DNA of 34,695 bases. Origin: an uncultured Gammaproteobacteria bacterium (GTDB lineage: Bacteria > Patescibacteriota > Patescibacteriia > UBA9934). Of the stretch, positions 2,941 to 33,687 are shown piece after piece; position 1 is the first letter of the stretch, and each line of letters starts with the position of its first letter. The position numbers were made by a program, and so were the translations under genes. The notes under the pieces were generated by a model, which saw only the letters and a list, made by a program, of their open reading frames with translations, did not search any database and was not told where the DNA came from. The stretch is taken from NCBI GenBank assembly GCA_964452565.1, contig CAYVLY010000002.1:185166-219860 (forward strand). The letters run 5' to 3'.

Positions 2941-2974
2941 AAACGACAAACGCCCGGGTCGAGAAGACCGGGCG
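2941..2974 (-). terminator. Intrinsic terminator of GC-rich unit A; same family as the cassette-array 3' module
   Basis: Minus strand: CTACGCCCGG-loop-CCGGGCG followed by TTTGTCGTTT. Shares the CTACGCCCGRG...CYCGGGCGTTGT pattern with 14158-14210 and 15963-16017. Confidence 0.7.
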
Positions 2975-3023
2975 TAGACTGACACGCGGGCCAGTAGGTT
3001 GCGTGCATGTGTCGGAATAAACA

Positions 3024-3236
3024 TTACTTCTCCGACAGGATGTCGTGACCCTCCTTAACAAGGGCAGCCTCGAGATCCACGAGGTCCCCGTGGGTCAACA
3101 GAGACTCACCAAAGACATGTACCGCCATTTGTGGCGTGACTTCGGTAGCAGTCCGATACCAGTCCGCCTCAATCTGACGCCATGTCTCGCGAGCCTGAGA
3201 GAGTGCCAGCTCCCTTTCGCTGTCAGTAACGGTCAA
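3024..3236 (-). CDS. GC-rich ORFan A, 70-aa acidic helical protein
   Basis: TTG start preceded by AAGGAG with a 6-nt spacer. Terminator follows downstream. GC-rich relative to flanks. An antisense shadow ORF (3045-3275) lacks such signals. Confidence 0.55.
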   Translation of the reverse strand: MTVTDSERELALSQARETWRQIEADWYRTATEVTPQMAVHVFGESLLTHGDLVDLEAALVKEGHDILSEK

Positions 3237-3300
3237 AAAGAACTCCTTTGCAGGTCGCTAGCAGATGCGACGTAGCACACTCACCTTAACAAATATTTAC

Positions 3301-3331
3301 CAAAAACAAAACAGGCCCCAAGGGCCTGTTT
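3301..3331 (-). terminator. Intrinsic terminator after the DHH-like gene
   Basis: Minus strand: AAACAGGCCC-ttg-GGGCCTGTTT followed by TGTTTTT. Confidence 0.7.
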
Positions 3332-3363
3332 GCAAACTATAAGTTCTGTAGGACTTATAGGTC

Positions 3364-4194
3364 TTATTTCAACGATTTAATAAGTTTGTCGGTCGGAACT
3401 AGCTCACCGTCTCTCGGAGAAATCATCCCCCAGCACTTACCACCTCCAAAAAGAAAACCACTATATTTTTCAATAAGCTCTTTGGCCTTATCCGTCTCTT
3501 GAACATACAGCTTTCGATTTCCCTGCTTGATGATCGCAGGTGTTGGCTTTCCGTACTCGTCGAATATAAAATATGAGACTGCATCACGGAGATCAATGTC
3601 ATCATTGTCGCTTTCGATGATTAAGAAGCCGTTCTGCTCACGCCGGCCTTCCCAAGCCTTCTTAGCCTGCACTTCCTCTTCTTTGCGCTCTTTGAACCCA
3701 AGTTCATACACCAGTTCTTTGATGTATTGAACTCCACGCTTTTGATCTGCTTCTGACAGGCCAATCTTTTGCAGCTCCCACAAAAATCCGCGATCAACTG
3801 CTGCTACAGCCATCACAAGCATTGGATCAAAGCCAACCTCTTTAAGTTCGTCATCATCGATCTCATACAAATCCAAAAACTGCTCTAAAGAACTTTGCTT
3901 ATTAAGCCGATCCAAGTCATTGTACTGATGATGATCGATAATATACACTTCAATGCCAGCTTTCTGAAGCTCCTTCTCAGTCTCAACTCCAGGAATTTCA
4001 ACAATAGCCACAGCTAATGCCTCAGGATCGGCTTTTTTGACCTTTTTAATAAGATCCTTCTCTTTATCTAAAGTCGCCCCATGCCCCTGCTGCGACACAA
4101 TCATCGGAATTTCTAACGCCTTTGCGATCTTAATAATCAAAAGCGATTCCTCATCATTTCGCGGGCAGATAAGTACTGTGTGCTTACTTTGCAT
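3364..4194 (-). CDS. DHH-family phosphoesterase-like protein (tentative)
   Basis: Start reset to the ATG at 4194, 1 nt after the ileS stop (the longer ORF would overlap ileS). IIDHHQ and C-terminal FGGGK resemble DHH motifs III and IV. Motif I is unclear. Confidence 0.4.
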   Translation of the reverse strand: MQSKHTVLICPRNDEESLLIIKIAKALEIPMIVSQQGHGATLDKEKDLIKKVKKADPEALAVAIVEIPGVETEKELQKAGIEVYIIDHHQYNDLDRLNKQSSLEQFLDLYEIDDDELKEVGFDPMLVMAVAAVDRGFLWELQKIGLSEADQKRGVQYIKELVYELGFKERKEEEVQAKKAWEGRREQNGFLIIESDNDDIDLRDAVSYFIFDEYGKPTPAIIKQGNRKLYVQETDKAKELIEKYSGFLFGGGKCWGMISPRDGELVPTDKLIKSLK

Positions 4195-4195
4195 A

Positions 4196-7081
4196 CTAAA
4201 AACCAAGCCAAATATCTTGCTCTGCAATTCGGACTTCTTTCTGATGCTCAACCGCATCACTTCGATCAAATTCGATCGAATCTGCAAGTGTTGCCTCTTT
4301 GATAGAATCCGCGTGCTCTTCGTAGAGCTTCTTTACCTCATCCGCCTCTGAATAAATCTTAAGTGCTATTCGATCATTGATAGTCAAGCCTGCTTCCTTA
4401 CGCATCTGATTCACACGACGTGTAATGTCGCGGACCATTCCTTCGCGGATCAACTCAGGAGTTAATTCCATATTTACTTCAACCTTCAAATCACCCTTCT
4501 TAACCTTCATGGACTTAACATTCACCTCATCGAGGATCACAGCTTGATATTCATTTGAAACTTTCCCTAAAGGCACCCACACGGTCATATCACCCAAAGC
4601 CTGTTTGATCGGACGACCAGCCTCCTCACGAGCATCCAAAACTCTACTAACAATCGCCCGCGCTTCACCCATCTTTTCAATCACAGCATCATCGACTGAA
4701 TCTAGGTGCGGCCAATCCTCAAGATGAACACTTAAACGCTCTTCATCTCCCTTATACTCACCAGCGATCCCTTGATACAACTCTTCTCCCAAGTACGGCA
4801 TAAACGGTGCAACCATCTTTGAAAAAGTCTCAAGCACCCCACGGAGCGTTGCAAGCGCCTCAAGCTGATCCTCACCTTCAATTTTGAATCGATCGCGTGA
4901 TCGACGCACATACCAAGTAGAAAGATCAGTAACAAAGCTTTGGAGTACACGTGCTGCAAGTGTAAGCTCATATGCCTCAAGTGCCTCAGTTTGCTCTTTC
5001 AATGTCTGGTTCAAGCGAGACAGGATCCAATTATCTAAGACATGCTTTCCTGATGGTGCTCGACCGTCATCATGTTCCTGATACAACTGATAGAACGAGA
5101 GAACATTGTTCATTATATTGATGAACTTTTTTGATACTTCTGACACGCCCTCTTCGCTAAACCGCAGATTCTCAGCACGCACCACAGGAGTTGACATTAA
5201 GTAATATCGAACCGCATCAGCTCCATACTTTTCCATCACTTCCATTGGATCTGGGTAGTTATTCAGACGCTTTGACATCTTCTTTCCATCTTCTGCCAGA
5301 ACAATTCCATTCACAATCACGTTTTTGAAAGCTGGCATTTGGAACAATGCATTTGAAAGCACGTGTAAAGTGTAAAACCATCCACGGGTTTGATCCTGTC
5401 CCTCTGCAATAAACTCTGCTGGGAATCCTTGCTCAAACTTTTGCTTGTTATTAAACGGATAATGCAGCTGCGCATATGGCATTGAGCCTGACTCAAACCA
5501 GCAGTCTAGAACCTCATCGATGCGCTTGTAAACCTTACCGTCTTTATTGATCTTAATCGTATCAACAATGTGCTTATGAAGATCCTTAACTTTCTTTCCT
5601 GATAGCTCTTCAAGTTCTGAACGTGATCCAATGCAAATAGTATCACCATCTTCTGACTGCCAAACCGGTAATGGGGTTCCCCAAAACCGCGAGCGAGAGA
5701 TCGCCCAATCACGCGCACCTTCGAGCCACTTTCCAAATCGACCTTCTTTTATATTGCCCGGCACCCAGTTAATCTCTTTGTTTGTATTGATAAGCTGATT
5801 CTTAATCTCAGTCACACGCACAAACCATGATGATGTTGAATAGTTCAAAAGTGGAGTATCACAGCGCCAACAGTGTGGGTAGCTATGCTTAACCTTTTCT
5901 TTCTTAAATAACTTTTCATTGTGCGCAAGCCACTTCAATACCTCAATATCTACGCTCATCGTGTCTCCTTTTTGTTTCAGTGGCCGATCCTTAACTTCAT
6001 ATCCTTCTTTCTGCAAAGGATCTGCAATCTCGGTTACAAATGTTCCATCCATATTGACATGCACGATTGGTTCAACCTCCTCTGCAAGACCCAATCGCAT
6101 ATCATCCTCTCCAAACCCAGGTGCAATATGTACGATTCCGGTTCCATCTTCGGTTGATACAAAATCTGCAGCAACAACTCGAAATGCATTTTTATGACCC
6201 TTGAAGAACGGGAACAGTGGCTCATAGGTTGATCCAACAAGGTCAATGCCTCTGATCATCTCGACCCAATCGTATTTAATGTCACTAAGTACCTCATCGA
6301 TTAATGATTTTGCAAGAATCAACTTTTCACCCTCAACTTCAACAACAACATAGTCAACATCTGCACCAACAGCGGCCAACACGTTTCCGGGAAGCGTCCA
6401 CGGGGTTGTGGTCCAAACCAAGAGCGATGCATCTTTAAACTTTCCGCTCTTAAGCTTCATCTTCACAATCACTGAGATGTCGGTCACATCTTGGTAGCCT
6501 TGTGTAACTTCGAAGTTTGATAAAACAGTCTCACAACGTGGACAGATATGCATTGGCTTTTGCCCCTCATAGATCATGTCCTTATCCCAAAGCGACTTGA
6601 ATACCCACCAGATTGATTCCATGTACTCCAAATCCATGGTCTTGTACGCGTTTTCCATGTCGATCCATCGACCAAGTCGTCGCACAACTTTTTTCCACTC
6701 ATCAACATATGTCAAAACACATGACCGACACTTATCATTGAATTGATCTATTCCGAATTCTTCAATTGCCTTGCGTGATCCAAGGTCAAACTGCTTTTCA
6801 ACAATGTTCTCAACTGGCAACCCATGACAGTCCCAACCCCAAACACGCTCAACGCGATAACCACGCATAGTCCAATAGCGAGGCACAACGTCCTTCATTA
6901 CGCTCGCAACAATATGTCCGTAGTGCGGAAGGCCGGTTGCAAATGGGGGGCCATCATAAAAGACATAAGGCCTCCCCTCAGGCCGGCCCTCTACAGATTT
7001 TTCAAAACATTTGTACATGTCCCAATAATCTGCAATCTTATGCTCTTTTTGGGAATGAGTTTCGCGGTTTTTCTCTGTCAT
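4196..7081 (-). CDS. ileS: Isoleucine--tRNA ligase, type 2 (eukaryote-like) form
   Basis: 961 aa. PPFATGLPHYGH (HIGH region), KMSKR (KMSKS), WCISR-like WAISRSRFWGTP. Length and N-terminus are typical of type-2 IleRS. Confidence 0.93.
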   Translation of the reverse strand: MTEKNRETHSQKEHKIADYWDMYKCFEKSVEGRPEGRPYVFYDGPPFATGLPHYGHIVASVMKDVVPRYWTMRGYRVERVWGWDCHGLPVENIVEKQFDLGSRKAIEEFGIDQFNDKCRSCVLTYVDEWKKVVRRLGRWIDMENAYKTMDLEYMESIWWVFKSLWDKDMIYEGQKPMHICPRCETVLSNFEVTQGYQDVTDISVIVKMKLKSGKFKDASLLVWTTTPWTLPGNVLAAVGADVDYVVVEVEGEKLILAKSLIDEVLSDIKYDWVEMIRGIDLVGSTYEPLFPFFKGHKNAFRVVAADFVSTEDGTGIVHIAPGFGEDDMRLGLAEEVEPIVHVNMDGTFVTEIADPLQKEGYEVKDRPLKQKGDTMSVDIEVLKWLAHNEKLFKKEKVKHSYPHCWRCDTPLLNYSTSSWFVRVTEIKNQLINTNKEINWVPGNIKEGRFGKWLEGARDWAISRSRFWGTPLPVWQSEDGDTICIGSRSELEELSGKKVKDLHKHIVDTIKINKDGKVYKRIDEVLDCWFESGSMPYAQLHYPFNNKQKFEQGFPAEFIAEGQDQTRGWFYTLHVLSNALFQMPAFKNVIVNGIVLAEDGKKMSKRLNNYPDPMEVMEKYGADAVRYYLMSTPVVRAENLRFSEEGVSEVSKKFINIMNNVLSFYQLYQEHDDGRAPSGKHVLDNWILSRLNQTLKEQTEALEAYELTLAARVLQSFVTDLSTWYVRRSRDRFKIEGEDQLEALATLRGVLETFSKMVAPFMPYLGEELYQGIAGEYKGDEERLSVHLEDWPHLDSVDDAVIEKMGEARAIVSRVLDAREEAGRPIKQALGDMTVWVPLGKVSNEYQAVILDEVNVKSMKVKKGDLKVEVNMELTPELIREGMVRDITRRVNQMRKEAGLTINDRIALKIYSEADEVKKLYEEHADSIKEATLADSIEFDRSDAVEHQKEVRIAEQDIWLGF

Positions 7082-7090
7082 AATGGTGTC

Positions 7091-7119
7091 ATATTATCAG
7101 TGAATCGGGCTTTTTTCAA
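7091..7119 (-). promoter_or_regulatory. ileS promoter TTGAAA-N17-TAATAT, -10 box 9 nt from the ATG
   Basis: Minus strand: TTGAAAaaagcccgattcactgaTAATATgacaccattATG. Confidence 0.55.
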
Positions 7120-7170
7120 GCAAATCGTCTGGATTCCAGCCGTCGCTACTTCGTAGCTATGGATGGCAGG

Positions 7171-7196
7171 CTGTATTCTGGGTTCTGTATTCTGCG
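7171..7196. repeat. CTGTRTTCTG-type short tandem motif
   Basis: ctgtattctgggttctgtattctgcg. Related copies at 10444-10469 (opposite orientation) and 24463-24493. Confidence 0.6.
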
Positions 7197-7200
7197 GGCA

Positions 7201-7229
7201 TTGACTTTTTCACACAAAAATGCTAATTT
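7201..7229 (+). promoter_or_regulatory. Promoter of GC-rich unit B1 (TTGACT-N17-TAATTT)
   Basis: Hexamers at 7201-7206 and 7224-7229 with a 17-nt spacer. Confidence 0.6.
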
Positions 7230-7272
7230 CCCACTGACCTTAGCCGCCCGAGAGGGCAAAGGAGTGAGAGGA

Positions 7273-7722
7273 GTGGAAAGAGAAAGAAAAAAAAGTCTGC
7301 TTGTGAAAGTCGGGCATGCCCACGGCATCGTGAAGCTGACCCGCAATGGACACGGCTTCCTCGTGATCGACAAGAGCATGACTGTCCAGGTGCATCCACC
7401 AGAAACAGTCGCCGAGATCATGGGCAATGCCAGCATCGAGCTGCGGCGAGGCACCCACTGTGACGACCTGATCGTGATTTTCGACAAGGTCGGCAACCGC
7501 GTGCGCGTCAACGGCCTGGTGGCTGTGAGCGAACCCCGCGACCGCGCCGGAGCCTACGAGGAGATCAACCCCCGCCCGCACAGCCACGATGTTCTCTGTG
7601 GCCCAAGTGATGCCGTGCACCACATCAGCATCGTCCGTGGTGACAGAGTGCTCAAGCTCACGCTCAAGTACAGCTGGGGCTATCCGGTCGGCAGCACCGT
7701 GCCCATCAACAAGCGCGGCTAG
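7273..7722 (+). CDS. GC-rich ORFan B1 (about 149 aa)
   Basis: GTG at 7273 preceded by AAGGAG (7259-7264) with an 8-nt spacer. Strong G/C at codon position 3 in this frame. Promoter upstream and terminator downstream. Overlapping minus-strand ORFs read through these signals. Confidence 0.55.
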   Translation: MERERKKSLLVKVGHAHGIVKLTRNGHGFLVIDKSMTVQVHPPETVAEIMGNASIELRRGTHCDDLIVIFDKVGNRVRVNGLVAVSEPRDRAGAYEEINPRPHSHDVLCGPSDAVHHISIVRGDRVLKLTLKYSWGYPVGSTVPINKRG

Positions 7723-7747
7723 CCAGCCCCACGAACCCGTACACCTC

Positions 7748-7786
7748 CACCCCTCGTCTCTTGACGTGGGGTGATCTGCTTTTGTT
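7748..7786 (+). terminator. Intrinsic terminator of B1
   Basis: CACCCC-N14-GGGGTG followed by atctgcttttgtt. Confidence 0.65.
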
Positions 7787-7813
7787 GACATTTACAGCTT
7801 TGGCTGCTAACTT
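7785..7813 (+). promoter_or_regulatory. Promoter of GC-rich unit B2 (TTGACA-N17-TAACTT)
   Basis: Hexamers at 7785-7790 and 7808-7813 with a 17-nt spacer. Confidence 0.6.
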
Positions 7814-7858
7814 CGACACAGCTTAAACCCAAACGCCTTAGCGGTGAAAGGATCGCCA

Positions 7859-8290
7859 ATGCCCCTCCTTCATTCAATTCACTTCTGTGGTCGAGTGGTT
7901 GTCGGCGAAACAGAACCCGCCAACAAAACTAAGATCATTCTCAGTAAAACCACTTCAATCCGTGACGTGTGGCCAGACTACATAGCCAGGGTGATGGGTG
8001 GTCTACGCATAGTCCTGACCCTAACTCCCAGCAGCCTAGTCATCTCTCTACCACAGGACCTGCATGGAAGAGCGGTCAAGTACATGGGCCATATACTGCG
8101 GCCCAACGGGATCACAACAATCAGGCCCTCCAGGGGCATCCATGACCTGACTGTAGTAGCACCTGACGGCTCTTGGCTTGGATTCGATATCTTCTTGGGA
8201 ACCTCCCAGCAGGCTGACGACTTGGTGGACTTGCCTGAGGATGCAAGATACCCCGCGGGAGCCACCCCAGCAACGTCCATGCTTCACTAG
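7859..8290 (+). CDS. GC-rich ORFan B2 (about 143 aa)
   Basis: ATG at 7859 preceded by AAAGGA with a 6-nt spacer (the ORF track starts at the GTG at 7844). Weak hairpin plus T-run at about 8306-8345. Confidence 0.55.
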   Translation: MPLLHSIHFCGRVVVGETEPANKTKIILSKTTSIRDVWPDYIARVMGGLRIVLTLTPSSLVISLPQDLHGRAVKYMGHILRPNGITTIRPSRGIHDLTVVAPDGSWLGFDIFLGTSQQADDLVDLPEDARYPAGATPATSMLH

Positions 8291-8350
8291 CCACCATTTA
8301 CCTCCTCCGCGCCTCGCACATCTCGTGCGGGGCTCATGCTTTTTAAAAAG

Positions 8351-8386
8351 GCGATAAAGGTTAAAAAGGTGATTAAAAGTGATTGT
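8351..8386 (+). repeat. GTGAT-triplet element (GCGATAAAGG..AGGTGATTAAAAGTGATTG)
   Basis: Aligns with 21513-21548. Inverted copies at 21568-21600 and 12208-12246. Confidence 0.7.
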
Positions 8387-8449
8387 CTGAATCATCCAAA
8401 CAACTGTGCACTGTGCACTGCGAACTGAGCACTGGTATACTGTTAATAT

Positions 8450-9550
8450 ATGAAACAAACCATCTACATAGGTGCAGATCATGCTGGATTTGTTATGAAA
8501 GAAACCTTAAAAACAAAACTAGAAAGCCAGGGTTACCACATCGAAGACCTAGGCGCCAACAAACTTGATCCAAAAGATGACTATCCGCAATACGCTGCCT
8601 CAGTTGCCCGAGCTGTAGAAAGCCACAAAGGCTCACTCGGTATTCTTTCATGCGGTAATGCCGAGGGCGTATGCATTGCTGCTAATAAATTCGATGGCAT
8701 CCGTGCTGGAGTAGGATTCTCAAATGACGCAGCCCGAACCATGCGTGAGGATGATAACGCAAACATAATATGTATCCCGGGACGAATCGAGACTATCGAT
8801 GACCCGATCGAAATCGCGCAAACATTTATCAAAACCCCGTTCTCCCAAGCTGCTCGACACAAACGCCGGCTTGCAAAAGTCGCAAGATTTGAAAACATAC
8901 CCGTTGAAGTAGTTCCTGCAATACTTGTTCAAAATTTCGAAATATTTAAGAAACAAATCTCACACTCAGGGATCCGTGGACTGGCACCAATGTGGCAGGT
9001 TGATGTGCTTGATGAATCTATGTTTGAATCTCGATCCTTTTTTGACGCAAAGCAAGTCGCACAGATCAAAGAACTGCCTGAAATCGAGCTTCACTTAATG
9101 ACTCTTGATCCATTGCCAATTATTGAAAACTGGAAGTTCCATATACCAACACTTAAGCGTGCCATTGTACATGCCGAAGTCGATAAGCCATTGGAGCCAA
9201 TACTGGCTTACATCAAAAACCTGGGACTTGAAGCCGGACTTGCTCTTAACCCAGAGACTTCGATCAAAGCAATAAAACCTCTTGTACACCTACTTGATAC
9301 GATTTTGATAATGGGCGTGCACCCAGGTGCCTCAGGCCAATCATTCTTAGGTAAAAAAATCTTTAAGAAGATCAAAAAGGTCGCCAAAAAATATCCAAAT
9401 CTACGTATTGCAGTGGATGGGGGTATAAACCAGGATACTGCGCAAGATATAATCAATGCTGGGGCTCATCAACTCTGTGCAGCTTCGGCTATTTGGAAAG
9501 CAAAAGACCCCACCAAAGCCTTTAACAATCTGTCCACTGAAGATATTTGA
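8450..9550 (+). CDS. Fusion protein: ribose-5-phosphate isomerase B (N-terminal) plus ribulose-phosphate 3-epimerase-like barrel (C-terminal)
   Basis: N-terminal IYIGADHAGF...SCGNAEGVCIAANK is RpiB/LacAB-like. C-terminal ELHLMT, IMGVHPGASGQSF and AVDGGIN match Rpe motifs. TATACT box lies 8 nt upstream of the ATG. Confidence 0.75.
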   Translation: MKQTIYIGADHAGFVMKETLKTKLESQGYHIEDLGANKLDPKDDYPQYAASVARAVESHKGSLGILSCGNAEGVCIAANKFDGIRAGVGFSNDAARTMREDDNANIICIPGRIETIDDPIEIAQTFIKTPFSQAARHKRRLAKVARFENIPVEVVPAILVQNFEIFKKQISHSGIRGLAPMWQVDVLDESMFESRSFFDAKQVAQIKELPEIELHLMTLDPLPIIENWKFHIPTLKRAIVHAEVDKPLEPILAYIKNLGLEAGLALNPETSIKAIKPLVHLLDTILIMGVHPGASGQSFLGKKIFKKIKKVAKKYPNLRIAVDGGINQDTAQDIINAGAHQLCAASAIWKAKDPTKAFNNLSTEDI

Positions 9551-9602
9551 GGCCGTGGCGAAATGTGTTAGTATTTATACGAATTTAATACGCATTTTTA
9601 CT

Positions 9603-10433
9603 ATGAATATAACAATAATCAAACGATCAGCAATCGCATTGGTAGCGATCTTCATGGCATTTGGTGCATTCTTTGGCATCCAACAGGCTCAGGCTTTGAC
9701 AAGTTATGATGACATCGAGGCCGGAGATCTCATCCGTGGAGAAACCTTCTCAGCGGTCTACTACATGGGTGCTGATGGACTTCGCTATGTCTTTCCAAAT
9801 GATAAGACATATTTCACTTGGTATGACGACTTTGATTCAGTTGAATGGATTTCCGACTCTGACCTAGCTAAAATCCAGATTGGTGGAAACGTCACATACA
9901 AGCCAGGTGTGCGAATGGTGAAAATCACCTCTGACCCAAAAACATATGCAGTCGCAGGTGGTGGAGTACTTCGCCATGTAGGAACAGAAGAGGTTGCAAT
10001 TGATCTCTATGGATCATCATGGAACACAATGATTGACGATGTACCTGATGGATTCTTCACAAACTATACGTTAGGCGATGCGATCGATACAGTTGGAGAT
10101 TACGATGCTGATAATGAGGAAGCAGATGCAACAAATATTGGAGAAGACAAAGGTCTACTTGCACCTGCAGAAATCGTGATTGACTCAGGAGGATTTGATC
10201 CAATCTGTGTTGGTATCGAAGTTGGACAAGGTGTTCGGTTCACAAACAACGATGATGAGAATCACTCAGTCACAGCAGACAATCTAAAGTGGGGTAGCGG
10301 AACAATGGCAGCTGGAGTTGAGTATATCGAAACATTTGATGAAGATGACACATATAGTTTCTATGATGGATATGACAGTGCAAACACGGGAGCTGTCTAC
10401 GTAGGAGACGATGCCGACGACTGCACAGAGTAA
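9603..10433 (+). CDS. Secreted protein with C-terminal cupredoxin-like domain (tentative)
   Basis: Start reset to MNITIIKRSAIALVAIFMAFGAFFGIQQAQA (signal-peptide-like). The C-terminal ...VRFTNNDDENHSVTAD... resembles the cupredoxin fold but no Cys ligand is seen. Confidence 0.45.
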   Translation: MNITIIKRSAIALVAIFMAFGAFFGIQQAQALTSYDDIEAGDLIRGETFSAVYYMGADGLRYVFPNDKTYFTWYDDFDSVEWISDSDLAKIQIGGNVTYKPGVRMVKITSDPKTYAVAGGGVLRHVGTEEVAIDLYGSSWNTMIDDVPDGFFTNYTLGDAIDTVGDYDADNEEADATNIGEDKGLLAPAEIVIDSGGFDPICVGIEVGQGVRFTNNDDENHSVTADNLKWGSGTMAAGVEYIETFDEDDTYSFYDGYDSANTGAVYVGDDADDCTE

Positions 10434-10443
10434 TATCAAAGAA

Positions 10444-10469
10444 CCCAGAACGCAGACTACAGAACACAG
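10444..10469. repeat. CAGAAC-type short tandem motif
   Basis: cccagaacgcagactacagaacacag, the reverse orientation of the 7171 and 24463 motifs. Confidence 0.55.
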
Positions 10470-10473
10470 ATCA

Positions 10474-10498
10474 AGAACCGCCTTATGGCGGTTCTTTT
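10474..10498 (+). terminator. Intrinsic terminator
   Basis: AGAACCGCC-ttat-GGCGGTTCT followed by TTT. Confidence 0.8.
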
Positions 10499-10518
10499 AA
10501 TACACGCCAAGGTCCCCA

Positions 10519-10606
10519 GCCAATTTTGACGCGACCCGGCTCCGTCCGCCGAAGCTCCGTTAAGGAGCGTAGGTGGATGGAGGGGAGCCGTTAGACGAAA
10601 ATTGGC
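10519..10606. repeat. Long imperfect palindrome (about 88 nt) in an ORF-free spacer
   Basis: GCCAATTTT...CCGGCTCC pairs with GGAGCCG...AAAATTGGC. The apex is GCTCC-gttaa-GGAGC. Confidence 0.6.
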
Positions 10607-10667
10607 GGCAGGCCTTGAGCATTATTTGTGGCCGCGGGACTACTCTGCAAAAGGCTCTTTCTTTCCC

Positions 10668-10728
10668 CAGTTTCTTTGAGCCAGCAAAGAAACTGGGTCT
10701 GGAGGTTTGGAGGGTGAAACGCCTCCAA
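10668..10728. repeat. 12-bp-stem hairpin fused to the 37-nt repeat
   Basis: CCAGTTTCTTTG-agccag-CAAAGAAACTGG, then 10692-10728, which is identical to 1-37. Confidence 0.8.
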
Positions 10729-10806
10729 GCGATTGGTGAATCCTAAAATTCCCTTCAATCACTTAGGATGACGAAAATGGGTGGGATGAGCTATAATGAG
10801 ACTACT

Positions 10807-11217
10807 ATGAAACTCCTTCGATCAAATCACCACAACATGCGCATTATTCATTGGATTGTATTTGTTATAGCGCTTTGGATTATATTAGTGCCTTTTATCG
10901 GTGATGACATTCTCAAACTTGTACTTGGAGAATCAGTATTTGCACAAGTGAACATTGTCGATCTGCTTAAATGGGACGATCTATTTCTGGGCCTTGGAAT
11001 CTGTATCCTGTCTCTTATTGCAGCAACACTTGAACAACTTTCAAAAAAACACCCTGGACTTAAAGCTATGCACTGGATGCAACTGGTTCTGGGAATCTGG
11101 ATTACAGTGGCGCCATTTGCAATAACTTTTGATCTTGAAAGCTTTGCATGGTCTCATTTTGTAAGTGGTGTCTTAATAGCAACATTTGCATTGTTGCAAA
11201 TCCGATACGAGGAGTAG
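10807..11217 (+). CDS. Small multi-pass membrane protein (SPW-repeat-like, tentative)
   Basis: Four hydrophobic segments with repeated W-I-x-V-x-P-F motifs. The ORF is open from 10768, but TATAAT at 10792-10797 lies 9 nt upstream of the ATG at 10807, so that start is preferred. Confidence 0.5.
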   Translation: MKLLRSNHHNMRIIHWIVFVIALWIILVPFIGDDILKLVLGESVFAQVNIVDLLKWDDLFLGLGICILSLIAATLEQLSKKHPGLKAMHWMQLVLGIWITVAPFAITFDLESFAWSHFVSGVLIATFALLQIRYEE

Positions 11218-11224
11218 ACCGATC

Positions 11225-11283
11225 GTCATCCTGAGGCCCCGCGAAGGATCCACTAGTAGATTCTTCGCTCCGCTCAGAATGAC
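11225..11283. repeat. Palindromic intergenic element, GTCATYCTGA family
   Basis: gtcatcctgaggccccgcgaaggatc ... gattcttcgctccgctcagaatgac. Confidence 0.8.
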
Positions 11284-11331
11284 AAGATGCTTTAAACTTT
11301 CAACTTTATACTTTCAGCTACCACCTCTTCT

Positions 11332-12210
11332 ATGCCTCCAGTTAGGGATATAAAACCACTTTCTGAAAAAAAACTTTTTGCGCTTGAGAAACGTGCGGAC
11401 AATATTCGTGCTGACATGCTTAAGATGCTTGAGAACGCAGGGAGCGGGCACTCAGCAGGACCACTTGGACTAGCTGATATTTTTACTGCGCTCTACTTCC
11501 ACATTCTTGTGCATGATCCTAAAAAACCAAATTGGAAAGATCGTGACCGGCTGCTGCTGTCTTGCGGGCATACAGCACCTATTCGATATACAACAATGGC
11601 GCATGCTGGGTACTTCCCTAAAAGTGAGTTAAAAACACTACGCAAGTTTGGCTCCCGCCTTCAAGGTCACCCAGAAATGACATACCTGCCTGGGCTTGAA
11701 AATACTTCAGGACCACTTGGTGATGGATCCCCTCAGGCAGCAGGTCTCGCTTACATTGCAAAACAAGAAAAACTTCCATGGCACACATACTGTGTGATGT
11801 CAGACGGCGAACTCCAGGCTGGAATCACTTGGGAGGCTGCACTTTTCGCTGGTCGAAACGCATTACACAATCTTACGTGGATTATTGATCGAAATAACAT
11901 TCAGATCGATGGGTATACTGAAGAGGTTATGCCGCTTGAACCACTGGTTGATAAGTTTGAGGCCTTCAACTTCCATGTCATTGAGGTTGACGGTCACAAC
12001 ATGCGAGAGATCGTTGATGCATGTGCGTACGCACAATCAATCTACGAACAGCCATGCGTGATCATCGCACACACCACTCCCGGCAAAGGAGTGGACTTTA
12101 TGGAATTTGAGCCAATCTGGCATGGGAAGCCGCCAAAAGATAAGGCTGAATTAAATCGTGCACTAAATGCCCTTCGAACTTTAAATGGTAAAATCGAAGC
12201 TGGAGAGTAA
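11332..12210 (+). CDS. Transketolase, N-terminal (ThDP-binding) subunit
   Basis: GSGHSAGPLGLADIFTALYF, SDGELQAG and DRNNIQIDG motifs. Length (292 aa) matches split-type transketolase. Confidence 0.88.
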   Translation: MPPVRDIKPLSEKKLFALEKRADNIRADMLKMLENAGSGHSAGPLGLADIFTALYFHILVHDPKKPNWKDRDRLLLSCGHTAPIRYTTMAHAGYFPKSELKTLRKFGSRLQGHPEMTYLPGLENTSGPLGDGSPQAAGLAYIAKQEKLPWHTYCVMSDGELQAGITWEAALFAGRNALHNLTWIIDRNNIQIDGYTEEVMPLEPLVDKFEAFNFHVIEVDGHNMREIVDACAYAQSIYEQPCVIIAHTTPGKGVDFMEFEPIWHGKPPKDKAELNRALNALRTLNGKIEAGE

Positions 12211-24455: not shown

Positions 24456-24462
24456 TTCTAAA

Positions 24463-24493: not shown

Positions 24494-25024
24494 TTATTCC
24501 ACTGGAATCATGTAATAAATTGCATTTTCAGTATAAAGCTCGATCGCATACTCAGCATCCTCGCTATCACCAAAGTATTCCTCAAGAACCGGATAAACCA
24601 CCATTGGCCCGATCATATACGAAAGCATGTTCTTGAACGGGAACTTTACAACTGCGTACTCATCAGCCTCTATAGTTCTCAGGCTGTAATCTTCAGGAAG
24701 TACTGTGACCTGTACTTCATCTATTATCGAACCGAGCTCGCTTCTAAGATCATCACCTGATACTTCTTCTGGATTGTCATAATAGATCCCTAACCAGACG
24801 TTGGTACCAATTCCATCTGATGCAAGCGCCTCTTGCATTCTTGTGAATACTGGACCGGACTGTGCGTAAGGACCAGTGTATTCTTCGTACACGAAATTAT
24901 ACGGGCCCATGGAGCGCACATCAACCTCATATGATCCAAAGCATCCCATATACCACAAGAAGCCGATGAGAATCACTGCAAGTAGTACCAAAAGTGCTAC
25001 TAAATTTTTCCAAAAACGATTCAT
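24494..25024 (-). CDS. Membrane-anchored GyrI-like (SOUL / AraC-effector-binding fold) protein, tentative
   Basis: N-terminal TM segment. YEEYTGPY...GIYYDNPEEV...RSELG pattern resembles GyrI-like small-molecule-binding domains. Confidence 0.45.
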   Translation of the reverse strand: MNRFWKNLVALLVLLAVILIGFLWYMGCFGSYEVDVRSMGPYNFVYEEYTGPYAQSGPVFTRMQEALASDGIGTNVWLGIYYDNPEEVSGDDLRSELGSIIDEVQVTVLPEDYSLRTIEADEYAVVKFPFKNMLSYMIGPMVVYPVLEEYFGDSEDAEYAIELYTENAIYYMIPVE

Positions 25025-25075
25025 ATTTGTAGTTATTAATTCTTGCTTGAATTATAGCATTATTGGATGTTGAGG

Positions 25076-25158
25076 TTGACATTCGGATCACTTTCGGATA
25101 TATTCATTAACCCCCTTCCCAACCCTAGCCAGCGAGGCTTCTCGCTGAAGGAAAAAAC
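25076..25158 (+). promoter_or_regulatory. Promoter and leader of GC-rich unit E; diverged copy of the cassette 5' module
   Basis: TTGACA(25076)-N17-TATATT(25099)CATT... The leader contains CAACCCTAGCCAGCGAGGC (cassette leader has CAACCTAGGCCCAGAGGCGC). GAAGGA lies 6 nt before the ATG. Confidence 0.65.
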
Positions 25159-25527
25159 ATGAACCCCGGTTTCTACGCACTCATTAGCGTCATCCTGATC
25201 TTTGCACTGCTCTGGCTCGGCAATCACGCCTTCAACACCCACTTCAGGAGGCTCTACTACTCTGGGTACAAGGCAATGGTCTTACGAACAATGTATAAAC
25301 TTGGAGCATACACTGGGTCAACGCAGCAAGGTGCCTCATGGGTCACCGCAGACAATGTCAGTGACTCATGCAGGGGCGATGCCCACTTCACGAAGAACCT
25401 GGAGTTTGTGCTCGATCTCATGAGAGAAGATGGTTTGGTCAAAGAAAACGAACATTGGGGGCAAGAGATCTACTGGCTCACTGAGCGGGGACTCGAGGAG
25501 GCCAGGGAACCCTGCTCCGACGCCTGA
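25159..25527 (+). CDS. GC-rich ORFan E: TM anchor plus winged-helix-like domain (tentative)
   Basis: 122 aa. N-terminal hydrophobic helix. C-terminal VLDLMREDGLVKEN...YWLTERGLEEA resembles a wHTH recognition region. Confidence 0.55.
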   Translation: MNPGFYALISVILIFALLWLGNHAFNTHFRRLYYSGYKAMVLRTMYKLGAYTGSTQQGASWVTADNVSDSCRGDAHFTKNLEFVLDLMREDGLVKENEHWGQEIYWLTERGLEEAREPCSDA

Positions 25528-25555
25528 CAGATCACCTATGGTCCTGCTCCTGCGT

Positions 25556-25588
25556 CCCGCGCCACCTCCGGCGCGGGCTTCTGCTTTT
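25556..25588 (+). terminator. Intrinsic terminator of unit E
   Basis: CCCGCGCC-acctcc-GGCGCGGG followed by cttctgctttt. Confidence 0.75.
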
Positions 25589-25707
25589 ATAAACTTTCGA
25601 GTATCAAGGTTAAACCTCCAAGGTTCAACCTTGAGAAAAAAATGCTACTATTATTGACTATTGACTATTTGGCGCTAATACGTTATTATTATGTCGCTTT
25701 CGAGTAT

Positions 25708-25784
25708 GGGCCCTTAGCTCAGCTGGCTAGAGCGCCTCGCTTGCACCGAGGAGGTCATCGGTTCGACTCCGATAGGGTCCACCA
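25708..25784 (+). tRNA. tRNA-Ala (anticodon UGC), CCA encoded
   Basis: Cloverleaf read by eye. Acceptor GGGCCCT/AGGGTCC with G3:U70. Anticodon stem CCTCG/CGAGG with loop CTTGCAC. T-arm ATCGG-TTCGACT-CCGAT. 3' CCA. Confidence 0.92.
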
Positions 25785-27460: not shown

Positions 27461-27967
27461 ATGCCAGCAAAAAAACGAAAGACTACAAAACGGAAGGCAG
27501 CTCCAAAAAAACGAAAGGTTGCTAAGAGGAAGCCTGCGAAACGAAAGGTAGTACGGCGAAAAGCTGCTCCTAAGAAGCGAAAGGTCGCTAAGAGAAAGCC
27601 AGCTAAACGCAAAGTAGCAAAGCGAAAGCCTGCGAAGCGTAAGACCACTAAGCGAAAGACAGTAAAACGCAAGGTGACAAAAAAACGCAAGCCAGCTAAA
27701 CGAAAAACTACAAAACGTAAAACAGTAAAGCGAAAGACAACTAAGCGCAAAACTGTTAAGCGGAAAAAAGCTGCTCCTAAGAAGCGAAAGGTCGCTAAGA
27801 GAAAGCCAGCTAAACGCAAAGTAGCAAAGCGAAAGCCTGCGAAGCGTAAGACCACTAAGCGAAAGACAGTAAAACGCAAGGTGACAAAAAAACGCAAGCC
27901 AGCTAAGCGCAAGGTTGCTAAACGCAAACCTGCGAAACGTAAAACTACTCGACGTAAGAAACGTTAG
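27461..27967 (+). CDS. Lys/Arg/Ala/Pro-rich histone H1-like basic repeat protein
   Basis: 168 aa made almost entirely of (A/T/V)KRK(P/T/V)AKRK units. Strong SD GGGAGGTG is 8 nt upstream. The antisense ORF is an artefact of the repeats. Confidence 0.7.
   Translation: MPAKKRKTTKRKAAPKKRKVAKRKPAKRKVVRRKAAPKKRKVAKRKPAKRKVAKRKPAKRKTTKRKTVKRKVTKKRKPAKRKTTKRKTVKRKTTKRKTVKRKKAAPKKRKVAKRKPAKRKVAKRKPAKRKTTKRKTVKRKVTKKRKPAKRKVAKRKPAKRKTTRRKKR
27559..27906 (+). repeat. 141-nt perfect direct repeat (27559-27699 and 27766-27906), period 207 nt, in frame inside the Lys-rich gene
   Basis: Checked base by base: the two copies are identical. The offset of 207 nt equals 69 codons. Confidence 0.9.
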
Positions 27968-27978: not shown

Positions 27979-28106
27979 AAAAATCCCCGTCGTTTGATGA
28001 GGAGGAACTAAGCCCATCCGTCGCTCTACAAGCTATGGAGGGCGCCCAACATCCATTTCAATGAGGTTGGGCGGAGGACTCATCGCCAGACGACCGGGGA
28101 TTTTTT
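27979..28106 (+). other. About 128-nt branched hairpin ending in a T-run (complex terminator or small structured RNA)
   Basis: Outer stem AAAATCCCCGTCGT.TGATGAG / CTCATCG..AGACGAC.GGGGATTTT. Inner stem CGCCCAAC-N15-GTTGGGCG. Followed by TTTTTT. Confidence 0.5.
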
Positions 28107-28387: not shown

Positions 28388-28470
28388 CATAACCACCCTC
28401 CATCTCGAGCGAACGAAGTGAGTCGAGAGATCCCTCGGCTCACCTGACGGCTCACTCGGGATGGGTGAGT
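28388..28470. repeat. Palindromic intergenic element, CCATCTCGAGCG variant
   Basis: ccatctcgagcgaacgaagtgagtcgagagatcc...ggctcactcgggatgg. Related to the inner arms of 17187-17319. Confidence 0.65.
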
Positions 28471-28513
28471 GGTGCAGTGCTGGGGTTTTTGTTTTATGAT
28501 AAGATCGGTGGGT

Positions 28514-31791: not shown

Positions 31792-31795
31792 AATG

Positions 31796-32174
31796 AAAAA
31801 CTCGACTGGGGTAGAACCAGCCGAGCTCAAGAGAACTACCTTCCCATGTGTAGTTTAGGTGTTTGCGGTATTTTATCGGGGACTCAACAGCCGAGAGGAT
31901 GGGGTGGAATCTAAATAGCTTTTCCCGATCGGAGTTCCTGTGCAGGACCTCGTCTTACCGGAGCTATAAGCAAGATTTCGACGTATCGGAATCAGCTACC
32001 AGTGCTCTCCACACACATTATCGTCGACCGGGGTCAAACCCGTACTGCAACACCCTTGCTACCGCTGAGACGTACAAAGCATCGCCGGGGCCGCGCCGCA
32101 TGCACGTATGGGGCCACCATCTGCCGGTTTCCAACCGTTGGATGGTGCAGGGAAGGATAGATGTTAAGAGACGA
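31796..32174 (-). ncRNA. Candidate structured non-coding transcript (about 380 nt), class unknown
   Basis: Bounded by a TTGACA-N17-TATATT promoter (32181-32209) and a hairpin plus T5 terminator (31796-31825). No SD-led or convincing ORF on this strand. GC-rich with several helices, e.g. CACCATC...GATGGTG enclosing CGGTT-GGAA-AACCG. Confidence 0.45.
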
Positions 32175-32180
32175 GCAAGT

Positions 32181-32209
32181 AATATACCAAAAACCCTCGA
32201 TTTTGTCAA
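32181..32209 (-). promoter_or_regulatory. Promoter TTGACA-N17-TATATT of the orphan transcript
   Basis: Minus-strand hexamers at 32204-32209 and 32181-32186 with a 17-nt spacer. Same consensus as the cassette promoters. Confidence 0.65.
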
Positions 32210-32240
32210 GGATTGGCCCAGATATAGCATTTTGCACCCA

Positions 32241-32295
32241 AAAAAAGAAGAGGCCGGATCAGCGAGCATGCCATGCATGCTGCTAAACCGGCCTC
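32241..32295 (-). terminator. Intrinsic terminator of unit F
   Basis: Minus strand: GAGGCCGG...(inner AGCATGC/GCATGCT)...CCGGCCTC followed by TTCTTTTTTT. Confidence 0.75.
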
Positions 32296-32319
32296 ACGAA
32301 GAAGTCGAGGGTTGAAGGG

Positions 32320-33492
32320 CTAGTAGCCCCGTTTGCTGCTGCAGTTGAAGAGACCCCCGACATACCGGATGTCGTTTCGCCGATTCGGCATCTGCTGCTC
32401 CAGAGCATCAAACAGATCCTCCCTGATCAGACCCCGCTGCCGGAGCTGCTCAACCACCCTAAACACCACCATATTGAGGGGCTGCGACCACCCAACCGCA
32501 CCACAGATGGATTGGCCTTCAGTCACACCGAACCTCACGAACCGCTGAAGTTCATCTGCACTGCTGAACAGGCTCCTGAAGAGCTCAACCAGCTGTTCCT
32601 GACTGGTTCCGGAACGGCGCATCGTGGACTCGGGGGTGGAGGGCTCGCGCCGCTGAGGCACCGGACGGTCGCTGGCCTGCGTCTGGGCCTTGATCTCGGA
32701 CAGGGGCTTGCTCAACTCCTTGACGGCATCGGCAATCTCTTCCGGGTCGATCCGACCCTGGAAAATCTGCCAGGCACGCGGCAGCTCTTCCGGGACCAGA
32801 ACATCGATGGCTTGGAAGGAGTTGGTGATGCCGGATACGCAGACTTCACACCTGCGCCTGGCCAGGAGGAAGAGCGCACGAAGGTTCACGGACACATCGC
32901 TCCAGTCGGCGCCATCATCATCCACGCCGTCGTCGAGCGCAGCCACTTCACCCACTGATCTCTTCCAGGGATCCAGCTCCACGATCTCGTTGTCCTCGGT
33001 GATCGCAAGGGGACTCACAACCGGCATGGTGCCCATGTAGAACACGATGCTCGAGCCAGGGCCCTTGAGCTGCCAGAACCTCTTGGTGGTCTCGGGATCG
33101 TACTCCCCGCCAACCTTGTTCAGCACCACGCAGAGATCCATGTTGGCGAGCCTCTGGGCCGCCCGCTTCTTGTCCTTTGTGGGACGCTTCGGATCGGCCA
33201 GGACATCGGCGAGCTCCTCGGAATCCATCATGTGGATCTCCTTGGGTCCCTTCTCGAGGTTGACCGTGATCTCCGAAGGCATCGCCGGCGGAGCAGAGGC
33301 CACAGGCGGAGCCGCAGCCTCGGGATTGAGCCTGCCCACGACCTCGTAGGCCACGAACTCAGGAACTTCGAGCTTGGTCAGTTGACCCACCCTGAGGAAC
33401 TTGAGCCGATCCTCAGTGAGACCCATTTCGATCAGGCTGTCCGCCTGCTCTTCGGTGAGACCTGCATCCATCAGTTTCTTTTTGAAAGTCAT
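32320..33492 (-). CDS. GC-rich 390-aa protein with C-terminal effector-associated-domain (EAD, death-like) resemblance
   Basis: ATG is 8 nt after AAAGGA. The C-terminal about 90 aa (EQLVELFRSLFSSADELQRFVRFG...LNMVVFRVVEQLRQRGLIREDLFDALEQQMPNRRNDI) fits the helical EAD pattern as remembered. Pro/Ala linker after an N-terminal helical module. Confidence 0.6.
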   Translation of the reverse strand: MTFKKKLMDAGLTEEQADSLIEMGLTEDRLKFLRVGQLTKLEVPEFVAYEVVGRLNPEAAAPPVASAPPAMPSEITVNLEKGPKEIHMMDSEELADVLADPKRPTKDKKRAAQRLANMDLCVVLNKVGGEYDPETTKRFWQLKGPGSSIVFYMGTMPVVSPLAITEDNEIVELDPWKRSVGEVAALDDGVDDDGADWSDVSVNLRALFLLARRRCEVCVSGITNSFQAIDVLVPEELPRAWQIFQGRIDPEEIADAVKELSKPLSEIKAQTQASDRPVPQRREPSTPESTMRRSGTSQEQLVELFRSLFSSADELQRFVRFGVTEGQSICGAVGWSQPLNMVVFRVVEQLRQRGLIREDLFDALEQQMPNRRNDIRYVGGLFNCSSKRGY

Positions 33493-33687
33493 TACAACTT
33501 TCCTTTTGCGTTTTCCCTAAGGGGGCACTTTTCGACCCTTCCCTTTCCCGTGTGGTCACGTTACGGCCAATACACCGTAAACGCGAAAGCTCTATGTAGC
33601 CAAAACTACACACAACATTCGCGTTTACATAGCCTCTTACCTTATAAAAGAACGGTTGATAATAGCATAGGAAATACTACTTGTCAA
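33493..33687 (-). promoter_or_regulatory. Promoter TTGACA-N17-TATTAT plus about 160-nt structured leader of unit F
   Basis: Minus-strand hexamers at 33682-33687 and 33659-33664. The leader contains an 11-bp perfect stem (33577-33587 / 33618-33628) with a competing CTATGTA/TACATAG pairing. Confidence 0.6.

Follow-up and report, generated by a model that had tools for sequence, protein, structure and literature searches.

We analysed a 34,695-nucleotide stretch of the chromosome of an uncultured bacterium (positions 185,166 to 219,860 of contig CAYVLY010000002.1, assembly GCA_964452565.1; hereafter the window), in which six GC-rich segments lie between housekeeping genes of lower GC content. 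The segments are made up of small transcription units, which are probably moron-like autonomous accessory units residing at core-flanked hotspots of a chromosome of the candidate phyla radiation (CPR). This interpretation concerns architecture and genomic placement. The units deviate from the backbone in composition, nearly all of them carry a promoter and a terminator of their own, and the gaps that they occupy are empty, filled with other cargo or occupied by divergent homologues in related genomes. The original prediction, made from the bare sequence, had described compositionally foreign-looking, self-contained and natively promoted accessory units, and both the composition and the expression signals support that description.

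The IleS protein of the window is 84% identical to that of L001, a metagenome-assembled genome (MAG) labelled Candidatus Uhrbacteria, and 70–71% identical to those of other Patescibacteria MAGs. Judged by this protein, the backbone is a Candidatus Uhrbacteria-like (Patescibacteria/CPR) chromosome. Labels of the form Lnnn denote loci of related genomes that were compared with the window; 80 loci came from scanning metagenomes with the N-terminal subunit of transketolase. The gene order femAB-ruvA-HD-orf307-ileS, followed by rpiB-o325-tktN-DUF4349-tktC-rluA and onwards, is conserved in the clade although backbone GC content spans 0.37 to 0.63. The flanks of the units (ileS, rpiB-rpe, the split transketolase, rluA, ruvA and rRNA genes) show clade-wide synteny.

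Composition of the GC-rich segments

The six segments have GC contents of 0.558, 0.565, 0.514, 0.564, 0.536 and 0.562, in order along the window, and add up to 6,677 bp, or 19% of it. The remainder, rRNA genes excluded, has a GC content of 0.438. The originally estimated 6–7 kb of GC-rich DNA is thus accurate, and five G+C counts of single 60-nt lines given with it (41, 32, 44, 21 and 19 of 60) were all exact. Profiles of sliding GC, of GC at third codon positions (GC3; GC1 and GC2 likewise) and of codon usage had been proposed as a check; computed within the window, they set the units clearly apart from the backbone. In 300-nt windows the GC content is 0.440 ± 0.028 for the backbone (n=252) and 0.548 ± 0.049 for the units (n=50), and a value of at least 0.50 is reached by 42 of 50 unit windows compared with 5 of 252 backbone windows.

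The excess of G+C affects each unit over its full transcribed length and is greatest at third codon positions. GC3 ranges from 0.49 to 0.77 in the open reading frames (ORFs) of the units and from 0.35 to 0.57 in 26 backbone genes (pooled, 0.41); pooled GC1/GC2/GC3 values are 0.60/0.41/0.67 for the ten unit ORFs and 0.54/0.36/0.41 for the backbone genes. The units use a distinct dialect of C-ending codons. Comparing units with backbone, the codon shares are 0.43 and 0.09 for GCC, 0.39 and 0.06 for CCC, 0.34 and 0.12 for CTC, and 0.41 and 0.20 for ACC; GCC and CCC are thus raised about five-fold, while GCG and CCG are not raised. The dinucleotide signature distance is 0.065 between units and backbone, as against 0.028 between two halves of the backbone. 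Given that the 5' and 3' untranslated regions (UTRs) of the units are GC-rich too, the effect is regional and not purely one of codon choice.

Architecture of the eleven units

The six segments, originally counted as six units, contain eleven: ten monocistronic protein units (A, B1, B2, C1 to C4, D, E and F) and one transcript of about 380 nt without an ORF. Ten of the eleven have a promoter composed of TTGACA or TTGACT, a 17-nt spacer and TAnnnT, and all eleven end in a G+C-rich hairpin followed by a T-tract. The earlier claim that every unit has its own promoter, Shine-Dalgarno (SD)-led ORF and terminator therefore stands for the terminators and falls short for the promoter of unit A. In a sigma-70 consensus scan of window positions 1–20000, three promoters of the C array scored best, matching at 11 of 12 positions, and those of C4 and D matched at 10 of 12; the promoters of B1, B2, E, F and the ORF-less unit were read directly from the sequence. 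The promoter of the window's own tRNA-Ala gene has the same form (TTGACT-17-TATTAT), which identifies the unit promoters as a native strong type. With promoter, SD sequence, ORF and terminator of its own, each unit would be expressed independently and be insulated from the flanking housekeeping genes. The signals are as follows.

2941–3262, minus strand: unit A; ORF 3024–3236, 70 aa, TTG start after AAGGAG
2941–2977, minus strand: terminator of A, hairpin and T-tract; no convincing promoter
7191–7784, plus strand: unit B1; ORF 7273–7722, 149 aa, SD AAGGAG, GC3 0.76
B1 signals, plus strand: TTGACT 7191–7196, 17-nt spacer, TAATTT 7214–7219; terminator 7754–7784
7785–8343, plus strand: unit B2; ORF 7859–8290, 143 aa
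B2 signals, plus strand: TTGACA 7785–7790, 17-nt spacer, TAACTT 7808–7813; terminator 8311–8343
15958–16442, minus strand: array cassette C4; ORF 16380 to 16030, 116 aa
C4 signals, minus strand: promoter 16442 to 16414 (TTGACA-17-TATTCT); terminator 16006 to 15963
15326–15925, minus strand: array cassette C3; ORF 15842 to 15444, 132 aa, conserved leader
C3 signals, minus strand: promoter 15925 to 15897 (TTGACA-17-TATATT); terminator 15365 to 15336
14842–15305, minus strand: array cassette C2; ORF 15222 to 14899, 107 aa, conserved leader
C2 signals, minus strand: promoter 15305 to 15277; terminator 14877 to 14852, then a second small hairpin 14839 to 14820
14153–14805, minus strand: array cassette C1; ORF 14720 to 14226, 164 aa, GTG start, conserved leader
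C1 signals, minus strand: promoter 14805 to 14777; terminator 14201 to 14158, the same as that of C4 over 44 nt
18599–19140, plus strand: unit D; ORF 18628–19086, 152 aa, alternative start at Met27
D signals, plus strand: TTGACA 18599–18604, 17-nt spacer, AAAAAT ending at 18627; terminator about 19109–19140
25076–25588, plus strand: unit E; ORF 25159–25527, 122 aa, N-terminal hydrophobic helix
E signals, plus strand: TTGACA 25076–25081, 17-nt spacer, TATATT 25099–25104; terminator 25556–25588; leader partly array-like
32240–33687, minus strand: unit F; ORF 33492 to 32320, 390 aa, C-terminal EAD1-like helical domain
F signals, minus strand: TTGACA 33687 to 33682, 17-nt spacer, TATTAT 33664 to 33659; terminator 32295 to 32240
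31795–32209, minus strand: ORF-less unit, transcript of about 380 nt, adjoining gene F on its downstream side
ORF-less unit signals, minus strand: TTGACA 32209 to 32204, 17-nt spacer, TATATT 32186 to 32181; terminator hairpin 31827 to 31800

The coding status of the orphan ORFs rests on the placement of SD sequences and start codons, on the orientation of promoters and terminators and on a GC1>GC2<GC3 periodicity, which every ORF shows; unit A, for instance, has a GC content of 0.56 and GC1/GC2/GC3 values of 0.66/0.39/0.63. ORFs in alternative frames or antisense were considered as relics of known genes and gave no Pfam matches.

The promoter of F abuts the end of the 5S rRNA gene and is followed by a 5'UTR of about 165 nt (33493–33657, minus strand), which is structured (folding z-score, −2.9) and contains a 23-nt inverted repeat at 33577–33628; it may be a regulatory leader. 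The ORF-less transcript also folds stably (z-score, −2.96; none of 100 shuffles was as stable). It has no match in Rfam and no sizeable ORF on its strand 3' of the promoter, and from its sequence it is a candidate novel non-coding RNA. An Rfam scan of the entire window likewise gave nothing of relevance to the units.

The pattern AACGCCCGRG..CGGGCGYRG describes the array terminators and that of unit A, with four matches in the window where none is expected, and the proposal that unit A shares the terminator family of the array is thereby confirmed. In viral contigs the pattern, which has a generic terminator shape, produced 111 single unrelated matches (loci L009–L119, which were left out). 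Unit E had been said to share the −10 element and the leader of the array. The two do have TATATTCATT in common; the similarity of the leaders (CAACC..TAG..CC..AG.GAGGC) is partial and modest.

No terminal inverted repeats or target duplications were found at the bounds of any unit. Domain searches of the window's ORFs, which did not extend to the rest of the approximately 220-kb contig, detected no recombinase, transposase or other mobility domain, in agreement with the original remark that no mobility gene was in sight.

Intergenic hotspots in related genomes

The gap between ileS and rpiB measures 1.3 kb in the window, where it holds B1 and B2, and about 100–300 bp in L002, L127, L128 and L140. 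In L001 and L204 it holds three B-family units each and in L008 two, and the copies in all four B-bearing genomes have their own promoters and terminators. Comparison of the insertion sites with syntenic regions of relatives, which had been suggested at the outset, thus did reveal empty sites. In the gap between tktC and rluA, the window has the four-gene C array, and the gap is vacant in L002, L128 and L140. A single unrelated unit and the remnant of a terminator tail are found there in L001. The two unrelated units of L124 lie on the same strand, and their terminator tail is the GGGGCGTTGTTGTTTT of the array. In L200, a GC-richer relative, this gap (13526–14608) contains a Csx3 gene (Pfam E-value, 1.2e-19) followed by a gene for a P-loop NTPase, which is defence-type cargo at the gap of the array. 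Other DNA is found there in L139 and L003. Unrelated cargo in the gaps of L126 includes a MopE-repeat protein.

The gap between orf307 and the HD gene, which is the site of unit A, contains a small GC-rich unit with a terminator of the same family in L008 (two copies) and in L140; the site is GC-rich in L140 even though its backbone GC content is 0.37. L001 retains a remnant. L124 and L140 lack unit D between rluA and the methyltransferase gene, and L126 lacks unit E in its o176–ldt gap. The content of the o325–o149 gap in the window is confined to a structured, GC-rich element of 334 nt; in L204 and L126 this gap contains GC-rich gene units. As the gaps are empty in some relatives and hold other cargo or divergent homologues in others, they are hotspots with turnover. 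The turnover comprises gain, loss, tandem duplication (the B1/B2 paralogues) and replacement.

Position is kept at some of these sites. The original prediction would not have expected its units at the same positions in distant relatives with housekeeping-like conservation. The B cluster and the A site do keep their positions and, at least these two, are old residents; the conservation is nevertheless not of the housekeeping kind, since the B copies of different genomes are only 33–41% identical, compared with 84–85% for IleS.

Some smaller observations were made at the same gaps. Between the B cluster and rpiB, L001 (7615–8115) and L008 (10800–11303) have a gene of about 166 aa with an RF-1 domain (ArfB-like, GGQ); it has backbone-like GC content and is absent from the window. 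The units at the A site of L140 (3670–3910) and L008 (2160–2520) are tiny, with ORFs of about 26–35 aa that have similar ...NQ(I/V)xxGG tails and a common terminator loop, CCACGAGGGAAGC; these ORFs may encode small peptides. The structured element of the o325–o149 gap (window 10500–10735) folds strongly, with a z-score of −6.2, and its last 37 nt are identical to window positions 1–37. Part of it is 78% conserved in L001 (18376–18482), and contigs of the Logan assemblies end at its repeat. The surrounding 1.2 kb or so of L001 (17400–18600; GC content, 0.59–0.68) contains an element related to window 10598–10707; we found no convincing ORF and no Rfam match in this stretch.

The four-gene array

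Between the ORFs of C4 to C1 lies an intergenic module that hardly varies and is about 190 nt long: a terminator and a small hairpin come first, then a promoter and, up to the start codon, a 50-nt leader. C3, C2 and C1 have a common 5' module (−35 and −10 elements, 50-nt leader, SD sequence and first codons) with a 26-nt core that is 100% identical in all three; C2 and C3 are 91% identical over 96 nt. Despite these constant modules the array ORFs are mutually unrelated in sequence. The terminators of C1 (14158–14201) and C4 (15963–16006) are direct repeats, identical at 44 of 44 positions, that bracket C3-C2-C1. This is consistent with a recent insertion or duplication of the three-cassette block, or with gene conversion. 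A 15-nt conserved core, GGGYGTTGTTGTTTT, ends all four cassettes and also ends the cassettes at the tktC–rluA gap of L001 and L124.

An in-frame ATG that overlaps the −10 element would, if transcribed, give C2 and C3 a common 22-residue N-terminus, and it is the start used by gene callers (P0009). Given the perfect −35/17/−10 arrangement and the SD sequence before the internal ATG, we prefer, though with some ambiguity, the reading as promoter and leader.

The encoded proteins

Searches of Pfam, NCBIfam, PHROGs and PADLOC returned nothing above threshold for the unit proteins. We also ran exhaustive phmmer searches with A, B1, B2, C1 to C4 and E against 1.84 billion cluster representatives and with F and D against 5.8 billion clusters. 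Besides themselves, the first eight proteins retrieved only three relatives of B2 and one of B1; a marginal match of C3 to a repeat protein (E-value, 8.5e-4) was discounted. Thus A, C1 to C4 and E have no homologue among the 1.84 billion representatives. Among the 5.8 billion clusters F matched only itself, and D has a single relative, P0017, which is 41% identical and lies on a 1-kb contig. F has no viral relative either. By exact look-up, six of the ten proteins were found in 90%-identity clusters of one or two sequences (A being a singleton); the other four were absent.

The homologues of B1 (P0015 in L204 and L001 9304–9738) and those of B2 (P0012 in L008, P0013 in L204 and P0014 in L001; 34–42% identical) are all located at the ileS–rpiB gap. 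B1 and B2 are distant paralogues of each other (hhalign probability, 95%; E-value, 2.5e-8), and the family has ten members in four genomes. A hidden Markov model (HMM) of the family found no other match among 3,300 ORFs of the related loci. C4, C2 and the unit of L001 were considered as hidden members on account of MGN-like motifs seen by eye, but the family HMM misses them. The AlphaFold2 (AF2) model of B2 is an all-β sandwich with a pLDDT of 73. The supposition that the units form one dispersed family does not hold: at the protein level no units other than B1 and B2 are related, and the sharing of regulatory modules is confined to the array, unit A (its terminator) and unit E (its −10 element and part of the leader).

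F combines an N-terminal part of about 290 residues with a segment of about 80 residues that matches positions 1–79 of the 90-position EAD1 profile (E-value, 6.6e-5). The score of 23.7 bits is 0.5 bit under the cut-off of 24.2. An AF2 model made with no alignment was poor (pLDDT, 43) and was left out of the fold search; it has six helices at residues 298–381, in the EAD1-matching segment. No partner NTPase or second EAD1 protein was found near F or elsewhere in the window, the neighbours of F being the 5S rRNA gene, the ORF-less unit and a glmU-like gene. D is a multi-pass membrane protein with a C-terminal CPGC motif; it matches VKOR at 16 bits, below the cut-off of 27.5, and has no sequence match in the PDB. 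A matches DUF1651 at a sub-threshold E-value of 0.05. DUF1651, VKOR and EAD1 are common in GC-rich cyanobacteria and actinobacteria.

The GC excess of the B genes in related genomes

Foreign or orphan DNA is usually AT-richer than the genome in which it is found. The B genes exceed their backbones in GC3 in every B-bearing genome: 0.48–0.62 against 0.38 in L008, 0.59–0.76 against 0.41 in the window, 0.63–0.69 against 0.44 in L001 and 0.73–0.87 against 0.47 in L204. Core genes of these four genomes are synonymously saturated (pS, 0.71–0.83; identity at four-fold degenerate sites, 0.26–0.44). Given that the B genes are GC-rich at one gap despite saturated synonymous sites, simple recent import followed by amelioration cannot explain their composition. 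Across 29 loci, accessory ORFs are GC-richer than core genes only in low-GC members of the sub-clade (the window, L001, L003, L124, L126 and L128); they are about equal in relatives with a GC content of 0.51–0.52, and poorer in a relative at 0.63 and in more distant CPR loci. This pattern looks like a common pool near 0.5–0.6 GC. The persistence of the B genes and the pattern of the accessory genes pull in opposite directions as regards the cause of the GC excess, for which the candidates are inflow from a gene pool of about 0.52–0.60 GC and a locus-specific force that keeps GC content high.

Selection for structured RNA was rejected as a general cause, because the mRNAs of the units fold no better than dinucleotide shuffles in nine of eleven segments (z-scores, −1.3 to +1.1); the exceptions are the 5' region of F and C4 (z-score, −2.35), to which the ORF-less unit may be added. 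Avoidance of restriction sites was also rejected, as no palindrome is differentially avoided in the units relative to the backbone.

Alternative explanations

One alternative is that the units came recently from a donor rich in GC (a host, partner or virus), were placed under native promoters by domestication and have still to ameliorate. GC content, GC3, codon dialect and dinucleotides all deviate from the backbone as this would require, the spread of unit GC3 from 0.49 to 0.77 could be an amelioration series, and accessory ORFs of the sub-clade cluster at GC contents of 0.46–0.58 whatever that of the backbone. The weak matches of A, D and F, to families common in GC-rich cyanobacteria and actinobacteria, would also fit. 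The searches, however, gave no sign of the donors originally envisaged: none of the ten proteins has a homologue outside the lineage among the 1.84 billion representatives or 5.8 billion clusters searched, none matches a phage family in PHROGs, F has no viral relative, and the weak Pfam matches are all under the curated cut-offs. Moreover, genomes with only 26–44% four-fold identity, where an old import should have ameliorated, have the B cluster and, at the A site, a GC-rich unit in the same gaps, and the GC3 of the B genes climbs with that of the backbone across the four genomes. We therefore consider recent import improbable. The converse proposal, that the units are vertically inherited, fast-evolving genes of the lineage whose GC content is held up by GC-biased gene conversion at recombination hotspots or by selection on the transcript, accounts for a B family that stays at one gap in four genomes with saturated synonymous divergence while its GC3 follows that of the backbone at an offset of +0.1 to +0.4. 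It also fits the GC-rich UTRs and the GC-rich A site of L140. The codon shift is too specific for a plain drive towards GC, favouring GCC and CCC but not GCG and CCG; the mRNAs are mostly no more structured than their shuffles; the sister genomes lack orthologues of most units; and GC-rich relatives show no accessory excess. On balance, we judge this proposal unlikely.

Four unrelated, co-oriented ORFs separated by related hairpin modules, with the GGGYGTTGTTGTTTT core at the end of every cassette and at the same gap in L001 and L124, and with identical 44-nt direct repeats around C3-C2-C1, recall site-specific capture of the integron kind, in which the terminator hairpins would serve as sites for a recombinase encoded elsewhere. 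The window contains no integrase or other recombinase, the hairpins (26–44 nt) lack the R''/R' boxes of the GTTRRRY type, and the cassettes are individually promoted. Hairpins of this pattern are common to terminators in general, as the 111 viral-contig matches show, and the GGGYGTTGTTGTTTT core can also be read as a mere G-interrupted T-tract, which leaves integron-like capture very improbable. We give almost no weight to the last alternative, an artefact, be it through assembly chimeras with DNA of some GC-rich organism or through ORFs arisen by chance in non-coding DNA of high GC content. Long ORFs do arise on both strands of such DNA, and six of the ten proteins (A, C1 to C4 and E) have no homologue. 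Yet the Logan assemblies of two sequencing runs match window positions 8–9009 and 15977–25734 at 100% and break in the array region solely at the repeated array modules. These independent assemblies read through the junctions of units A, B, C4 and D and, for E, through the upstream one, so that chimerism, which had been named as a possible undoing of the prediction, is excluded for practical purposes. Homologous or analogous units occur at the same gaps in sister genomes from other studies, the chosen frames show the GC1>GC2<GC3 periodicity, the B proteins are conserved at E-values of 1e-10 to 1e-25, and ORFs in alternative frames have no Pfam matches.

Our preferred interpretation, that of moron-like autonomous units at core-flanked hotspots, has several observations weighing against it. 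Unit A has no convincing −35/−10 pair upstream. For A, C1 to C4 and E, the coding status is derived from sequence signals, there being no homologues. The 5' module of the array has no match in any other related locus examined. The persistence of the B genes fits import and amelioration poorly, and the lack of an accessory excess in GC-rich relatives fits a universal force poorly. The B2 model has no significant match in the PDB (best E-value, 0.1, to FHA-like sandwiches), and the EAD1 match of F is just under the Pfam cut-off, with no partner NTPase nearby. Finally, the route of movement proposed below is inferred only from the absence of other signatures.

Comparison with known systems

The best-fitting class is that of core-flanked hotspots, as exemplified by the minimal mobile elements of Neisseria and by chromosomal hotspots of horizontal gene transfer, or genomic islets, between core genes. 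The conserved core flanks, the alternative or absent cargo and the lack of mobility genes, inverted repeats and target duplications are all alike. The cargo described here differs in being GC-richer than the core, in consisting of single genes with full expression signals and, in one array, in having a constant module. Exchange in that class is by transformation, with homologous recombination in the flanks; for the present units this would be a prediction by analogy.

The recombinase-associated AID systems of Bacteroidales are arrays of orphan immunity genes. They have in common with the C array small, diverse, fast-evolving genes and repeated intergenic sequence, and a role in conflict is plausible for both; the array differs in that no recombinase is adjacent and that its products show no similarity to known immunity families in PADLOC or Pfam.

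Integron arrays, including CALINs, are likewise series of small, unrelated ORFs in one orientation, with a related imperfect palindrome after each. Unlike them, the window has no IntI or attI, and integron cassettes are promoterless and read from a common Pc promoter, whereas the array cassettes have promoters of their own with 10/12 to 11/12 consensus positions. An attC site is 57–141 nt long, with an R''/L''-L'/R' arrangement and GTTRRRY boxes; the hairpins of the window are shorter, and GGGYGTTGTTGTTTT does not fit GTTRRRY.

A search of the literature, limited in extent, produced no prior description of GC-rich islets in CPR genomes. A paper on "hypervariation" in Gracilibacteria concerns a repeat-containing gene and is unrelated.

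Phage morons of the HK97/HK022 type have five defining features (PMC3594210), four of which the units display: their own promoter, their own terminator, deviant GC content and absence between the same genes in relatives. Moron products are, moreover, often small accessory proteins. The fifth feature, a phage or prophage backbone, is replaced here by a cellular housekeeping chromosome with no PHROG matches, and some of the present units keep their site in genomes that have diverged deeply.

The EAD1 domain serves as an adaptor in conflict systems centred on NTPases (PMC7159879). The six-helix end of F is EAD1-like, with a score just under the cut-off; F differs from the effectors of such systems in having neither an NTPase partner nor a second EAD1 protein in the window.

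Possible mechanism, function and significance

The units are gained, lost, duplicated and replaced without transposon signatures. According to the interpretation that we favour, they would move, most likely, by general recombination through shared modules and/or conserved flanks following DNA uptake. They are probably expressed constitutively and strongly. The proteins would be conflict or host-interaction factors (immunity, defence or effector-like). Extreme divergence, orphan status, gap turnover, the EAD1-like domain of F and the Csx3 gene in the L200 hotspot point to such a function, which we propose with much lower confidence than the architecture and the hotspots.

A bolder but improbable reading is that of an undescribed CPR platform for cassette expression, with the constant modules of about 190 nt acting as portable homology arms or recombination sites, unrelated ORFs being swapped between them at the fixed hotspots, and the GC content of the transcribed cassette being held locally 10–20 points above the core, for example by GC-biased gene conversion. 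If true, the platform would be a counterpart of integrons or morons that resides on the chromosome and works independently of an integrase, and a natural system for the study of GC-biased conversion in bacteria.

CPR/Patescibacteria genomes are tiny and mostly syntenic, and their variable part is a good guide to the dealings of these epibionts with hosts, phages and competitors. In the window this variable fraction is orderly, with single genes, each under full and strong expression signals, at a few fixed gaps. Its composition is inverted: the orphan genes are GC-rich, and at least one family is GC-rich at the same site through synonymous saturation. The system could test GC-biased conversion or selection at the RNA level in bacteria, and CPR genetics might draw candidate expression parts from the promoters, leaders and terminators. 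Among the orphan proteins, the β-sandwich family B and the EAD1-like F are candidate factors of host interaction or defence. What deserves follow-up is the persistence of the GC excess, together with the array of constant modules.

Other features of the window

Two oddities of the backbone are typical of CPR genomes. RpiB is fused to ribulose-phosphate epimerase in a single gene (8450–9550), and transketolase is split into N- and C-terminal genes by a gene for a DUF4349 membrane protein (11332–14123). A gene at 27461–27967 (plus strand) encodes a lysine-rich, histone-H1-like protein of 168 aa; the gene has 15-nt periodic repeats and an internal duplication of 207 nt with 90% identity.

Short intergenic repeats and palindromes of about 100 nt, in several families of the AACCACCC...GGGTGGTT type, are found downstream of genes, both in the window (1642–1671 and 11255–11284; 27985–28105 and 28390–28475) and in sister genomes (L001 13900–14000 and 1900–1990; L008 2690–2800). 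These families look MITE- or REP-like.

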